Virus record (IMG/VR): IMGVR_UViG_2706794682_000011 | Origin: a virus | Taxonomy: Duplodnaviria > Heunggongvirae > Uroviricota > Caudoviricetes | DNA length: 4,331 nucleotides | Reading direction: 5' to 3' (one strand) | Shown: positions 1-4,331 of the stretch, piece by piece | Position numbering within the stretch: the stretch's first letter is position 1 | Layout of the letters: every line of letters begins with the position of its first letter | Notes under the pieces: model-generated | What the model saw: the letters and a program-made list of their open reading frames with translations, nothing else | Databases searched by the model: none | What the model was told of the DNA's origin: nothing | Position numbers and translations under genes: made by a program

Positions 1-114
1 TGGGTGAGCAATAATGTATACAAGATTAAGTAGTATATAAATTGCTACCGGAATGAAAATCATGCTCCAGTGTGTATCTTTTTTGGGAGGGATTGGCTGC
101 AAATAATCAGACAC
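1..114 (-). CDS. 5' part of a hypothetical protein with a hydrophobic, transmembrane-like N-terminus; gene continues beyond the left window edge
   Basis: Minus-strand frame has no stop from coordinate 180 down to 1 (60 codons) in about 30% GC DNA where stops are frequent. In-frame starts are GTG 114..112, TTG 102..100 and ATG 63..61. From the ATG the translation is MIFIPVAIYILLNLVYIIAHP, a hydrophobic helix-like stretch. It lies directly downstream of, and on the same strand as, the 125-aa gene. The start codon is uncertain: GGAG sits only 1 nt before the ATG, and GGAAAAA sits 6 nt before the GTG. Not in the ORF track because no stop is in the window. Confidence 0.35.
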   Translation of the reverse strand, partial: MSDYLQPIPPKKDTHWSMIFIPVAIYILLNLVYIIAHP

Positions 115-196
115 CGTTTTTCCATCAGTTTCAAGAAGAATTACTAGATCTCTTACTTCACCACTGACTTGAGTGCATCCTTAGTAGTAATGTTAA

Positions 197-574
197 TCAT
201 TTTTTCCCTCCAAATACGATGCCCTCTACGTCTTTGGAAGCTTTTTGTGATGACCACTCCTCTGAATCAGGTGATTTAATTAAAAATATTGTATCTCCAT
301 CAAAAATCGTATTTGTTCCGTAAAAATTCACATTTGATAGATCACCACCAAAAACCCTCTGCCCACTCGAGGTAATTGCCTCACCTAATTTAGTAAAATT
401 ACCAGCAATAGATGATTTTCTTTTTCCACTTCTATTCAAAGTGGCTTTAATTACACCACCACCATCCTTAGAGTTAAATAATTGAATGTCCACTCCAGCA
501 GTTGGTTGTATATATTTTGAAAGCTCTTTCTTGAACTTGTTAATATATTTATCTTTGTTTTCTTTGTTGGTCAT
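197..574 (-). CDS. hypothetical protein, 125 aa, no family recognised
   Basis: Complete ORF from ATG (574..572) to TGA (199..197). Sampled 60-nt stretches are about 30-33% GC, unlike the neighbouring prophage genes. The translation has no Cys or His, a Lys-rich N-terminus (MTNKENKDKYINKFKK) and a Gly/Ser/Asn/Thr-rich body. No signal peptide or recognisable catalytic motif. Divergent from the ybcN operon. Confidence 0.7.
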   Translation of the reverse strand: MTNKENKDKYINKFKKELSKYIQPTAGVDIQLFNSKDGGGVIKATLNRSGKRKSSIAGNFTKLGEAITSSGQRVFGGDLSNVNFYGTNTIFDGDTIFLIKSPDSEEWSSQKASKDVEGIVFGGKK

Positions 575-661
575 TGGTTAGATCCATAGTTCTGGCTGTG
601 ATTAGGTGAAAGTATACAAGGTTTTTAAAGCGAAGATCACTGTTTTGGCTTCAAGATAGTT

Positions 662-690
662 TTGATTTATCGTAATCAATCCGCCATAAT
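662..690 (+). promoter_or_regulatory. candidate sigma70 promoter (TTGATT, 17-nt spacer, CATAAT) directed towards the ylcH-like/ybcN operon
   Basis: -35-like TTGATT at 662-667 and -10-like CATAAT at 685-690 with a 17-nt spacer, about 55 nt upstream of the small ORF start at 747. Motif match by eye only. Confidence 0.3.
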
Positions 691-746
691 CCTCTCATCG
701 GAGCCTGAACAACTCCGGTGACTTCTGCGCATTTAAGGGGACTTAA

Positions 747-842
747 ATGCGACCACAATCTGAACTCATCACCTTGTCACAGATGCAGAAATGCACCTGC
801 GATTTTCTGCATTCTGCGGTTTCCGTTAGGGAGGCCGTATGA
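747..842 (+). CDS. ylcH: small protein (31 aa), YlcH-like position immediately upstream of ybcN
   Basis: ATG at 747 preceded by AAGGGG at a typical SD distance. Translation is MRPQSELITLSQMQKCTCDFLHSAVSVREAV. Its TGA stop (840-842) overlaps the ybcN ATG (839-841) as ATGA. K-12 has a small ylcH gene in this position; the sequence identity is not verified from memory. Below the ORF-track length cutoff. Confidence 0.45.
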   Translation: MRPQSELITLSQMQKCTCDFLHSAVSVREAV

Positions 843-1294
843 CTCTGCCAGTAGACGGCATCAAACTCCATCGCGGTAACTTCGCGGCCATCGGCCAGCA
901 GATTCAGCCATTGCTGGATGCCGGGCAATGCTTACGCCTGCAGGTTAAGCCGTGGCGCGAGAAGCGCAGCCTGTCGCAGAACGCGCTCAGCCACATGTGG
1001 TACACGGAGATCAGCGAATATCTCATCGCCCGCGGCAAGACCTTCGCTACGCCTGAGTGGGTCAAAGACGCGATGAAGCACACCTATCTCGGCTACGAAA
1101 GCAAAGACCGTGTAGATGTCGTGTCCGGCGAGGTCACCACCGTCCAATCCCTCCGCCATACGTCAGAGCTGGAAACCGGCGAGATGTACATCTTCCTGTG
1201 CAAAGTCGAAGCCTGGGCGATGAATATCGGCTGCCACCTGACAATTCCGCAGAGCTGTGAATACCAGCAGCTGCGCGATAAGCAGGAGGCGTAA
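839..1294 (+). CDS. ybcN: DLP12-type prophage protein YbcN (annotated in K-12 as a DNA base-flipping protein), 151 aa
   Basis: ORF-track translation MTLPVDGIKLHRGNF...LRDKQEA matches my recollection of K-12 YbcN in length and sequence. Strong SD AGGGAGG lies 4 nt upstream of the ATG. Gene order ybcN-ninE-ybcO-rusA is syntenic with DLP12. Confidence 0.9.
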   Translation: MTLPVDGIKLHRGNFAAIGQQIQPLLDAGQCLRLQVKPWREKRSLSQNALSHMWYTEISEYLIARGKTFATPEWVKDAMKHTYLGYESKDRVDVVSGEVTTVQSLRHTSELETGEMYIFLCKVEAWAMNIGCHLTIPQSCEYQQLRDKQEA

Positions 1295-1464
1295 TGGCTA
1301 CACCGCTTATTCGTGTCATGAACGGGCACATCTACAGAGTATCAAATCGTCGTAAGCGTAAGCCTGAGCTGAAGCCATCCGAAATACCAACACTGCTCGG
1401 ATATACCGCTAGCCTGGTTGATAAAAAATGGTTGCGACTGGCAGCAAGGAGGAATCATGGCTGA
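1294..1464 (+). CDS. ninE: NinE family prophage protein, 56 aa
   Basis: ATG at 1294 overlaps the ybcN stop (TAATG). AGGAGG lies 4 nt upstream. My manual translation is [56 protein letters not shown], ending at TGA 1462-1464, which matches lambdoid NinE as I recall it. Absent from the ORF track because it is under about 60 aa. Confidence 0.85.
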   Translation: MATPLIRVMNGHIYRVSNRRKRKPELKPSEIPTLLGYTASLVDKKWLRLAARRNHG

Positions 1465-1747
1465 TTTGAGAAAAGCAGCGCGTGGTCGGGAATGCCAGGT
1501 AAGAATCCCTGGCGTATGTAATGGCAATCCTGAAACGTCAGTACTGGCACATATCCGGCTGGCTGGATTGTGCGGTACCGGTATCAAACCGCCAGACCTG
1601 ATTGCCACCATTGCATGTTCTGCCTGTCACGACGAAATCGACCGCCGCACATATTTTGTCGATGCTGAGTATGCAAAAGAATGCGCGCTGGAAGGTATGG
1701 CGAGAACGCAGGTTATCTGGCTGAAAGAGGGGGTTATTAAGGCGTGA
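1457..1747 (+). CDS. ybcO: YbcO, Cys-rich putative prophage nuclease (DUF1364-type), 96 aa
   Basis: ATG at 1457 preceded by AGGAGG (1447-1452). Translation [24 protein letters not shown]...CSACHDE...KEGVIKA matches K-12 YbcO. The TTG at 1418 used by the ORF track is an upstream in-frame extension without an SD. Overlaps the ninE 3' end by 8 nt. Confidence 0.9.
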
Positions 1748-2106
1748 ATACCTACAGCATCACATTACCCTGGCCTCCGAGCAATAACCGCTATTACCGC
1801 CATAATCGCGGGCGCACACACATCAGCGCAGAAGGGCAGGCATACCGCGATAACGTCACCCGAATCATTAAAAACGCAATGCTGGATATCGGCCTGGCTA
1901 TGCCAGTGAAAATCCGTATTGAGTGCCACATGCCGGATCGCCGTCGCCGTGACCTGGATAATCTGCAAAAAGCCGCTTTTGACGCACTCACCAAAGCAGG
2001 TTTCTGGCTGGATGATGCTCAGGTCGTTGATTACCGCGTTGTGAAGATGCCTGTTACCAAAGGTGGGAGGCTGGAACTGACCATCACCGAAATGGGGAAT
2101 GAATGA
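1744..2106 (+). CDS. rusA: RusA Holliday-junction resolvase (crossover junction endodeoxyribonuclease), 120 aa
   Basis: Translation [26 protein letters not shown]...LTITEMGNE matches K-12 RusA. GTG start at 1744 overlaps the ybcO TGA stop (GTGA). Confidence 0.95.
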
Positions 2107-2243
2107 TGTTTGAGTTTTATATGGCAGAACTTCTTCGCCACCGCTGGGGGCATCTGCGCTTATATCGTTTCCCCGGTTCTGTTTTGACCGATTACCGAAT
2201 ACTGAAGAATTACGCCAAAACCCTGACAGGAGCAGGAGTATGA
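2103..2243 (+). CDS. ylcG: small prophage protein YlcG, 46 aa
   Basis: ATG at 2103 overlaps the rusA stop (ATGA). My manual translation is [46 protein letters not shown] with TGA at 2241-2243, consistent with K-12 YlcG. Same position between rusA and quuD. Confidence 0.75.
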
Positions 2244-2328
2244 AGTCAGAGATAACAATCAACTAATACTGTTTTGTTGATTTTTGCTTGTAATTGGCGT
2301 TCTGGTCTGATTTTTGTGGAGTAAGTTG

Positions 2329-2712
2329 ATGCGTGATATTCAGATGGTTCTTGAGCGTTGGGGAGCGTGGGCGGCTAATAATCATGAAGATGTGACCTGG
2401 TCGTCCATTGCCGCCGGTTTTAAGGGATTAATTACTTCAAAAGTAAAATCTCGCCCGCAATGTTGTGACGATGACGCGATGATTATTTGCGGGTGCATGG
2501 CCCGTCTGAAAAAGAACAACAGCGATTTGCACGATTTATTAGTAGATTATTATGTAGTCGGTATGACATTCATGTCACTGGCAGGTAAGCATTGCTGCTC
2601 TGATGGTTATATCGGGAAAAGGTTACAGAAGGCTGAGGGCATAATTGAAGGGATGTTAATGGCATTAGATATCCGGTTAGAGATGGATATCGTTGTTAAT
2701 AACTCTAATTAA
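2329..2712 (+). CDS. quuD: Q-like late-gene antiterminator QuuD (YbcQ), 127 aa
   Basis: ATG at 2329 with GGAG 7 nt upstream. Translation [24 protein letters not shown]...[16 protein letters not shown]...IVVNNSN matches DLP12 QuuD. The ORF-track TTG at 2314 adds 5 residues and was not chosen. Confidence 0.9.
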
Positions 2713-2745
2713 TATGCCAATTGTTTACTAAAAATTATTAAAAAT

Positions 2746-2763
2746 GGGGCGTTGCAACGCCCC
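2746..2763 (-). terminator. perfect 18-bp palindrome GGGGCGTTGCAACGCCCC flanked by A/T tracts; candidate intrinsic terminator, best oriented for minus-strand (porin) transcripts
   Basis: The palindrome is read directly from the sequence. On the minus-strand transcript it is followed by AUUUUUAAUAAUUUUU. On the plus strand it is followed by CAAAAAU, which is not U-rich, so plus-strand termination would be weak. Confidence 0.4.
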
Positions 2764-2829
2764 CAAAAATAAAGGGTAATATATAACAGAAGGTTTATAT
2801 AGTTAGAAGCAAGGTTGTGCTCCTAAAGG

Positions 2830-2890
2830 AAGTGGCTTGAGGGAGCCACTTATATGTTGGGGAGGCAAAGCCTCCCGCAACATATCTTTT
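2830..2890 (+). terminator. tandem stem-loops ending in a T-tract; candidate terminator for rightward (quuD or late-promoter) transcripts
   Basis: Hairpin A is 2830-2851 (AAGTGGCT / AGCCACTT, 6-nt loop). Hairpin B is 2852-2885 (ATATGTTGGGGAGGC / GCCTCCC-G-CAACATAT, 15 bp with one bulge, 3-nt loop) and is followed by CTTTT at 2886-2890. It lies immediately 3' of the porin stop on the opposite strand. Confidence 0.4.
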
Positions 2891-2900
2891 AGTAATCAAA

Positions 2901-3947
2901 TTAGAACTGGTAAACCATACCTACAGCAACGATATCATCGGTAGCAACGCCAGATGCTTTCGTGAAATCGCTCTTATCAATCAGGTTGATTTTGTAATCA
3001 ACAAAAGTGGACATATTTTTGTTGAAGTAATAGGTTGCACCTACATCAATATATTCAACCAGGTCCTGATCACCCCACGCACCCAAGTCTTTTCCTTTAG
3101 ATTGCAGGTAAGCAACGGACGGACGCAGACCGAAGTCGAACTGATATTGTGCAACTACTTCGAAGTTTTGTGCTTTGTTGGCAATATGGTTATTACCAAA
3201 AACAGTCATGTTCTGGGTTTCAGAATAGGTGGTAGCCAGATAGATGTTGTTCGCATCATATTTCAGACCAGCTGCCCATACTTCAGCATTTTGACCAGAT
3301 GCATTCAGGCTGTTGTTACCGTAGATAACCTGATTATTAGTGCGGTCAGATTTAGCATAGGTTGCACCTACACCGAATCCTTCATACTCATAAGTAGTGG
3401 AGAAACCGAAACCATCACCATTAGCTTCAGTTACGTCAGTGCGGTCATTTTTACCCTGATACTGAGCAGCAAAGTTCAGACCATCAACCAGACCAAAGAA
3501 GTCGTTGTTACGATAAGTTGCAACACCAGTGGTGCGACCAGTCATGAACACATCTGTTTGAGTCCAAGTGTCACCACCGAATTCTGGCAGGACGTCAGTC
3601 CACGCACCGATGTCGTATGCTACACCGTAGTTACGGCCGTAATCGATGGAGCCGTAGTCACCGAATTTCAGGCCAGCGAAGGCAAGACGGGTTTTATCTT
3701 TGGAGGAACCTTGAGATTCAGCGCGGTTGCCTTTGAATTCATATTCCCACTGACCGAAACCAGTCAGTTGATCGTTGATTTGGGTTTCACCTTTGAAGCC
3801 AAGACGGGCATAAGTAGTATCACCATCATCTGCATCATTAGAGGAGAAGTAGTGCTTAGCATTAACTTTCCCGTACAGATCCAGCTTGTTACTGTCTTTA
3901 TTATAAATTTCAGCTGCCTGAGCAGACATCGCCATCAGTACTGATGC
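2901..3947 (-). CDS. nmpC: outer-membrane general porin of the NmpC/Lc (OmpC/OmpF/PhoE) family; 5' end truncated by the N gap
   Basis: Translation has the mature N-terminus [17 protein letters not shown] and the canonical C-terminus ...VAVGMVYQF with a terminal Phe. The frame stays open above the ORF-track Met to the gap edge (..[11 protein letters not shown] is signal-peptide-like), so the true start lies in or beyond the Ns. Stop TAA at 2903..2901. The C-terminus is intact. Confidence 0.95.
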
Positions 3948-4043
3948 NNNNNNNNNNNNNNNNNNNNNNNNNNNNNNNNNNNNNNNNNNNNNNNNNNNNN
4001 NNNNNNNNNNNNNNNNNNNNNNNNNNNNNNNNNNNNNNNNNNN
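3948..4043. other. run of 96 N: assembly or scaffold gap of unknown true length
   Basis: Counted directly as 96 consecutive n characters. It removes the porin start codon, the first part of its signal peptide and the proximal promoter. Confidence 0.95.
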
Positions 4044-4117
4044 ATTAACGGCTGTTATTTATAAGTGCTCTATAATTTGAAGGTTCAATTTAAACCGGCT
4101 AAAAATAACACTGGAAA

Positions 4118-4139
4118 TTATTTGTTGGTTATTTGTTGG
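4118..4139. repeat. perfect tandem direct repeat, 2 x TTATTTGTTGG, with further ATTTG motifs just downstream
   Basis: TTATTTGTTGG at 4118-4128 and again at 4129-4139, followed by GATTTGCTTATGTATTTGTAG. It lies in the AT-rich region expected to be upstream of the porin gene. Confidence 0.5.
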
Positions 4140-4228
4140 GATTTGCTTATGTATTTGTAGTGGTGTTTTCAATACTCGGTAGCATTCTCGCAAATATCAT
4201 TTAGTGGTTTACGTACGTAAAAAATTGG

Positions 4229-4331
4229 GGTAATGACTCCAACTTATTGATAGTGTTTTATGTTCAGATAATGCCCGATGACTTTGTCATGCAGCTCCAC
4301 CGATTTTGAGAACGACAGCGACTTCCGTCCC
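4229..4331 (-). mobile_element. IS1 insertion sequence, right-end terminal 103 bp including the terminal inverted repeat; element continues beyond the window
   Basis: The reverse complement of 4229-4331 is GGGACGGAAGTCGCTGTCGTTCTCAAAATCGGTGGAGCTGCATGACAAAGTCATCGGGCATTATCTGAACATAAAACACTATCAATAAGTTGGAGTCATTACC, which matches the IS1 right end as I recall it. The terminal inverted repeat GGTAATGACTCCAACTTATTGAT starts at 4229. Confidence 0.85.
4244..4331 (-). CDS. insB: IS1 transposase InsB, 3' end only (C-terminus ...GRKSLSFSKSVELHDKVIGHYLNIKHYQ)
   Basis: Minus-strand frame ends at TAA (4246..4244) and encodes the recalled InsB C-terminus. The 5' part is outside the window. Confidence 0.75.
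   Translation of the reverse strand, partial: GRKSLSFSKSVELHDKVIGHYLNIKHYQ

Follow-up and report, generated by a model that had tools for sequence, protein, structure and literature searches.

The porin gene carried on the minus strand of a 4,331-nt stretch of viral DNA (IMG/VR record IMGVR_UViG_2706794682_000011, Caudoviricetes; the whole stretch is hereafter called the window) is very probably an intact allele of the lambdoid-prophage porin described as lc in phage PA-2 and as nmpC in DLP12, residing in what remains of a DLP12-like prophage in a Shigella sonnei-type genome. The gene as such is already known, as identical proteins are present in public phage and genome records and the Lc/NmpC type is a long-known one. 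An earlier note on this DNA had recognized a porin with an intact C-terminus and had compared it with the disrupted nmpC of K-12; it was silent on the classic Lc/NmpC identity, on a 3' untranslated region matching the small RNA IpeX, and on an IS1 element between porin and lysis genes. The features of the window are as follows:

839-1294, plus strand: ybcN (NinB-like; Pfam NinB)
1294-1464, plus strand: ninE (Pfam NinE)
1457-1747, plus strand: ybcO (Pfam YbcO)
1744-2106, plus strand: rusA (Pfam RusA)
2103-2243, plus strand: ylcG, a nin-region gene
2329-2712, plus strand: Q antiterminator gene of the phage-21 family (PF06530, E = 3.5e-53), named quuD in relatives
2713-2900, minus strand: porin 3' UTR with terminator, putative IpeX region (near-invariance, fold and terminator match)
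2901-3947, minus strand: porin coding sequence of the Lc/NmpC type (PF00267; identity to Lc/NmpC and phage porins)
3948-4043, no strand: assembly gap of exactly 96 N (241 bp in identical genomes)
4044-4228, no strand: distal part of the porin-to-holin intergenic region, 185 bases at -206 to -390 from the porin ATG, AT-rich (31% GC), 97.8-100% identical to the E. coli loci L001 and L002, to K-12 and to L007 (CP049179.1)
4229-4331, no strand: outer end of an IS1, its terminal 103 nt (full 768-bp element in L007)

From 660 to 2939 the window shares about 92% nucleotide identity and the same gene order with DLP12 of K-12, and the nin-region genes at 839-2243 indicate that the porin is located in a DLP12-like prophage. 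The quuD product is a distant match to the Q21 structures 6p18 and 6jnx (E = 7.6e-7). The porin gene is convergent with quuD and separated from it by 188 nt. Lysis genes are absent from the window itself, and in genomes identical to it holin, lysozyme and Rz come next. The position claimed in the earlier note, opposite to the late genes and between Q and the lysis genes, was therefore recovered, with quuD on the plus and the porin on the minus strand. At the far end of the window, nucleotides 1-600 form a reverse-strand cassette of low GC content (35%) with an ORF of 125 aa (197-574, minus) and the start of a 142-aa partner at the window edge. The two ORFs correspond to PHROG families 18061 and 16940, gave no match in Pfam, NCBIfam or PADLOC, and stand in place of ybcL-ybcM of K-12 DLP12; this cassette may be another moron.

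On the minus strand, 2901-3947 constitutes a single open frame of 348 sense codons with a TAA stop at 2901-2903, which represents codons 13-360 of the porin plus the stop. Its product was matched by the Pfam family Porin_1 (PF00267) with E = 2.7e-153 over profile positions 1-337 of 337, and solved structures of OmpC, OmpF, PhoE and OmpK porins were matched with E = 1e-116 to 1e-137. All residues equivalent to those of the OmpF constriction (K16, R42, R82, R132, D113, E117 and D121) are conserved, and the same holds for the terminal Phe and for PEFGG, the motif of the constriction loop. The protein ends with ...AVGMVYQF directly before the stop, and this end, intact to the final Phe, aligns with the C-termini of OmpC, OmpF, PhoE and OmpN, in agreement with the GMVYQF terminus reported before. 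On the 5' side the end of the signal peptide and the mature N-terminus (AEIYNKD) are visible, followed by the N gap from 3948, in which codons 1-12 are hidden. An ORF scan gives 344 aa from the ATG at 3935, but this codon is an internal Met of the signal peptide and not the true start.

The complete protein is 100% identical in amino acids to the porins of the inducible phages PhiR34_1 and PhiR68_2 and of the E. coli loci L001 and L006, and 91.4% identical both to Lc of PA-2 and to K-12 NmpC with IS5 removed. Identity to the other K-12 porins amounts to 68% for OmpN, 65% for PhoE, 64% for OmpC and 62% for OmpF. Of 5426 complete E. coli genomes, 1214 contain 80% or more of window 2700-4331. In many genomes NCBI PGAP names the gene as the host's own ompC, relatives being 'porin OmpC' in RefSeq, and with the NCBIfam OmpC subfamily model (cut-off 484) the window porin indeed reaches 513.5 bits. 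However, this model is of the 'subfamily' type and not an equivalog, identity to K-12 OmpC is 64% against 91% to Lc/NmpC, and the gene sits in a prophage between Q and lysis genes, so that sequence identity and genomic context leave virtually no credence for ompC, which was ruled out. For annotation this means that the name should be NmpC/Lc-type prophage porin instead of OmpC, that the 344-aa call from the internal Met is wrong, and that the N gap conceals the start codon as well as the entire promoter.

What lies in the gap could be read from relatives. An exact match to the 125-aa ORF (197-574, minus) served as anchor, by which long assemblies with the same arrangement were retrieved. One of them, L007, matches 1-3947 and 4044-4331 of the window, the IS1 junction included, with 100% identity; for three others (L005, L010 and L014) identity amounts to 99.85-99.98% over 1-3947 and to 100% over 4044-4331. 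As L010 is assembly GCA_002073875.2, published as Shigella sonnei 4303, the window is assigned to an S. sonnei-type genome. At the gap position all four assemblies possess 241 bp (6387-6627 in L007), the same in L005, L007 and L014 and differing at two positions in L010. This fill consists of 205 bp upstream and the first 12 codons (ATG-KKLTVAISAVA), i.e., -205 to +36 from the porin ATG, and contains the ribosome-binding site and the PnmpC promoter region along with the CRP site that is annotated as proximal in PA-2. Completed with it, the porin is an uninterrupted precursor of 360 aa with a signal peptide of 23 aa and a mature part of 337 aa, and the signal peptide in the four assemblies is identical to the 23-residue lc signal peptide annotated in the PA-2 record. 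The earlier suggestion that the gene may be functional, made subject to the missing 5' end, is thereby strengthened: with the gap closed in silico, an intact ATG and signal peptide were found in the four nearest assemblies, where neither a frameshift nor a premature stop nor a missing start was seen, although this assembly may differ.

Judged by the nearest complete genomes, the 5' end is intact; this isolate could differ, as its N run does not match their 241 bp. The run of 96 N stands against 241 bp in every relative, flank-identical genomes included, hence the gap length is not faithful, and coordinates past the gap are offset by 145 bp. For the S. sonnei 4303 genome the use of a multi-draft scaffolder was described in its genome paper, and N runs set by scaffolders are often of arbitrary length. 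That length discrepancy would also suit a gene which in this isolate is a pseudogene, its signal-peptide or promoter region, hidden by the gap, having been hit by an IS, a deletion or a frameshift, and the lineage is rich in IS, with three IS1 copies and IS3, IS21 and IS4-type genes within 20 kb. Furthermore, the gap begins 9 bp from an exact IS1 site in the same gene of E. coli JNEC-KY204, an IS1-split porin occurs elsewhere too (H17), and the K-12 copy is interrupted by IS5. Such a hidden lesion is nevertheless very unlikely, since the intact 241 bp and the 360-aa ORF are found in four long assemblies, independent of each other, that share the rare IS1 junction and have flanks of 99.85-100% identity, neither gap edge is adjoined by IS sequence in the window, and the length of a scaffolder's N run is often arbitrary. 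We therefore retain an intact allele as the preferred reading. In JNEC-KY204 (L002, 7239-8006) a different IS1 lies inside the signal-peptide codons of the porin, at window-equivalent position 3938, 9 bp from the gap edge; although cut by this element, that porin is annotated in RefSeq as a 344-aa 'porin OmpC' from the internal Met, the same false start as given by the ORF scan of the window.

The 3' side of the gene is completely available in the window. The 188-nt spacer separating the stop codons of porin and Q (2713-2900) is near-invariant among the window, K-12 DLP12, PA-2 and other alleles, whereas the coding region beside it has diverged, with a synonymous divergence of 0.6-2.8 in the 3' half of the porin gene. 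Read on the porin strand, the spacer RNA folds into a series of stem-loops with -69.2 kcal/mol (z = -8.3), and 0 of 200 shuffled sequences folded as well; an intrinsic terminator on the minus strand (2746-2763 followed by a U-run) ends the porin 3' UTR. In reviews IpeX is described as a 167-nt RNA of DLP12, which is transcribed together with the porin from the promoter of the latter and represses ompC and ompF (PMC12197685, PMC5069750, PMC3333887). The putative IpeX region at 2713-2900 matches the location described for this RNA, assigned by position and by identity to the spacers of K-12 and PA-2. As a scan of the whole window against Rfam at E <= 1 gave no match, and hence no family for the 3' UTR, the assignment draws on this spacer identity together with the literature descriptions.

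Comparison of alleles strongly indicates that the porin is under purifying selection. Between divergent alleles dN/dS ranges from 0.07 to 0.12, and the window gene differs from those of L001 and L006 at seven and 16 synonymous positions, respectively, and at no nonsynonymous one. The first approximately 120 codons are near-identical to K-12 even synonymously, and the remainder shows a dS of 0.2-2.8; because dS against K-12 nmpC is 0.6-2.8 in the 3' two-thirds while between K-12 nmpC and lc it is 0.07, the window gene has to be regarded as a distinct mosaic allele. The purifying signal might stem from selection in phages rather than in the present host.

Regarding expression, the region of interest is PnmpC, which is wholly within the N gap of the window and is identical at 239 of 241 positions between L007 and K-12. 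Also conserved in the L007 fill is ATAGAGATCTACTTCACAAAT, the proximal CRP site of the PA-2 annotation. In K-12, where the transcription start was determined by 5' RACE, deletion of -199 to -1 abolishes the nmpC promoter, for which activation by CRP through two sites and repression by OmpR, IHF and MprA were reported (PMC11677980). Homologues of the porin are expressed as RNA and protein in CFT073 (PMC12890032), and in S. flexneri anaerobic conditions induce them (PMC4229854). Intactness alone does not imply expression, and in titles and statements of the literature nmpC is called 'quiescent' in some E. coli strains; together with a published opinion by which nmpC 'appears not to be useful' to K-12, and with a surrounding prophage of which the window lineage retains a remnant interrupted by IS1, IS3 and IS21, this could be taken for an intact yet physiologically silent gene, a recently decayed prophage passenger without current host role. 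We regard this as rather unlikely in view of the strong purifying selection, with zero amino acid changes against seven to 16 synonymous ones in close relatives, of the activity of PnmpC in K-12, and of the homologues expressed in CFT073 and induced in S. flexneri.

Between porin and lysis genes the window lineage has acquired an IS1. In L007 it is a simple insertion of 768 bp (5434-6201) with a called transposase gene and an 8-bp target duplication, CCAATTTT, and L006 provides the uninterrupted, empty site. The element parts the porin from the lysis genes, being located 390 bp upstream of the porin ATG, and thus outside the promoter region delimited by -199, 190 bp upstream of the holin ATG, and 45 bp upstream of an intrinsic terminator of the late strand, AAACCCGCCGTCGAGCGGGTTT with a T-run. 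An exact search for the junction in species-representative genomes found none, and among 5426 complete E. coli genomes one similar but non-identical junction was detected (MS20675, 91.5%); in S. sonnei-type genomes it is present.

The late-strand terminator also coincides with a mosaic boundary. In L001, an E. coli prophage with an Stx-phage-like late region, homology to the DLP12 type extends exactly up to this terminator and is followed by divergence, from which we infer that one mosaic module, extending from Q across the 3' spacer, the porin and the adjoining spacer as far as the terminator, moves as a unit. Besides Q itself, a Q-dependent cassette comprises a late promoter of its own with a binding element, a pause element and a terminator (bioRxiv 10.1101/651190). 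Given this layout, the kinship with Q21 and the mosaic boundary at the terminator, the late promoter pR' is plausibly located within the invariant block that immediately precedes the terminator, where it would be split by IS1. Consensus scans of the native porin-holin spacer (L006, K-12) revealed no promoter-like site, the candidate TTTACG-16-TATGCT scoring only 8/12, and the hybrid at the IS1 flank, TTGGCA-17-TATGCT, is at chance level (five found versus 6.5 expected). Alternatively, pR' may lie directly after Q and read antisense through the porin.

The same insertion, in a prophage lineage also cut by IS3 and IS21, invites the idea of domestication, that is, of a decaying prophage in which the porin-plus-IpeX unit was kept intact, while the IS1 within the invariant block uncoupled the lysis genes from Q, supplied an outward -35 element (TTGGCA-17-TATGCT) and shifted the distal CRP site annotated in PA-2 approximately 776 bp farther away from the porin. 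We consider this course of events quite unlikely. The outward -35 of IS1, if true, could drive the lysis genes or alter local regulation.

Apart from the IS1, the porin behaves as a self-contained insert, a moron convergent with Q, with a terminator of its own in the window and a promoter region of its own as seen in relatives. The moron status proposed in the earlier note thus finds agreement in this terminator, in the promoter of relatives, and in the fact that in phage 1H12 another gene occupies the same slot. In 1H12 (L021, 2879-3560), which possesses a related Q, a promoter-plus-terminator cassette directly after Q is followed by the lipocalin gene blc on the reverse strand in the porin slot, and in phage 434B (L016, 2978-3937) the slot after Q contains a reverse-strand gene for the lipid A deacylase LpxR. 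This suggests that the slot after Q may be a hot spot for envelope-modifying morons.

By homology, the product would be synthesized as a precursor of 360 aa and, after removal of its Sec signal peptide, form a 16-stranded trimeric general-diffusion porin, directed to outer-membrane assembly by a C-terminal signal containing the terminal Phe. The trimeric pore is predicted from the conserved constriction residues and from solved trimeric porins that share 62-68% of the sequence. Once PnmpC fires, the cell would make the phage-type porin, and the attached RNA of the IpeX region would lower OmpC and OmpF of the host, so that the set of surface porins would be swapped, with changed permeability and changed receptors for incoming phages as a presumable consequence. 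Expression, trimer formation, activity of IpeX and effects on receptors or exclusion are all proposed here from homology and from the literature. An intact phage porin with an sRNA region tied to the repression of host porins can alter permeability, antigenicity and the display of phage receptors in Shigella and E. coli; this would be textbook lysogenic conversion and involves no new mechanism. The receptor of PA-2 is OmpC, and PA-2 lysogens swap OmpC for Lc, the classic case of lysogenic conversion with superinfection exclusion.

Among known systems, Lc of PA-2 (protein 2; GenBank J02580) occupies the same slot in the same orientation between Q and lysis genes, has the same signal peptide of 23 aa and the same 3' spacer, and is identical upstream at 237 of 241 positions from -205 to +36, where the annotated proximal CRP site is shared as well. 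The N-terminal halves of both proteins are near-identical, with one substitution in the first approximately 150 residues, but the window-type porin is five residues shorter than Lc. It reads DRTDV---TEAN where Lc has DRSDFDNYTEGN and FGNNHI where Lc has FADHFV; another stretch has DTQVNAGKVLPEVF in Lc, and near the C-terminus Lc carries KNDFTKALGVST where the window-type porin differs. The differences, substitutions as well as indels, are concentrated in a few segments of the C-terminal two-thirds, which we take as surface loops, and clustered changes in such presumed loops are the pattern that would be expected of a surface protein selected by phages or immunity.

DLP12 of K-12 presents the same neighbourhood (ybcN-ninE-ybcO-rusA-ylcG-quuD-nmpC-essD-rrrD) and is identical to the L007 fill at 239 of 241 positions over promoter and 5' segment. 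The 3' disruption of K-12 nmpC by IS5, mentioned in the earlier note, is indeed present: in MG1655 the gene is split by IS5B after codon 346 into fragments of 1040 nt and 58 nt, and the nmpC::IS5 frame ends with ...DFTKEGANKSLI* at residue 355, short of the last beta-strand and of the terminal Phe, whereas the 3' end in the window is intact. The same nmpC::IS5 is carried by a laboratory isolate of phage 434, annotated as 'IS5 insertion after codon 346'. The window lineage further differs from K-12 by the IS1 located 390 bp upstream of the porin gene and by another cassette, of two genes, in the place of ybcL-ybcM.

Closest in the porin itself are the 'OmpD'-annotated porins of inducible temperate E. 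coli phages, with amino acid identities of 100% (PhiR34_1, PhiR68_2) and 98% (ev099). PhiR34_1 shows the ybcN...Q-porin-S-R-Rz-bor layout as found for the window, and phages of the PhiR34_1/PhiR68_2/ev099 type share the Q-porin-S-R-Rz module, yet they are complete phages that form plaques on K-12, in contrast to the IS-riddled remnant of the window lineage. In species-representative genomes the closest relatives outside prophages are the chromosomal OmpD-type porins of Salmonella, Citrobacter and Enterobacter with 76-79% identity, and NmpC has been treated in the literature as the E. coli counterpart of OmpD. These chromosomal porins have neither an adjacent Q nor an IpeX-like 3' UTR, both of which occur, among 80 species-representative loci, only in those of E. 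coli and E. albertii. More distant are OmpC, OmpF, PhoE and OmpN of K-12, which belong to the same Porin_1 fold family and share the constriction residues, PEFGG and the C-terminal YQF, but with 62-68% identity to the window porin are chromosomal core genes and not prophage-borne.
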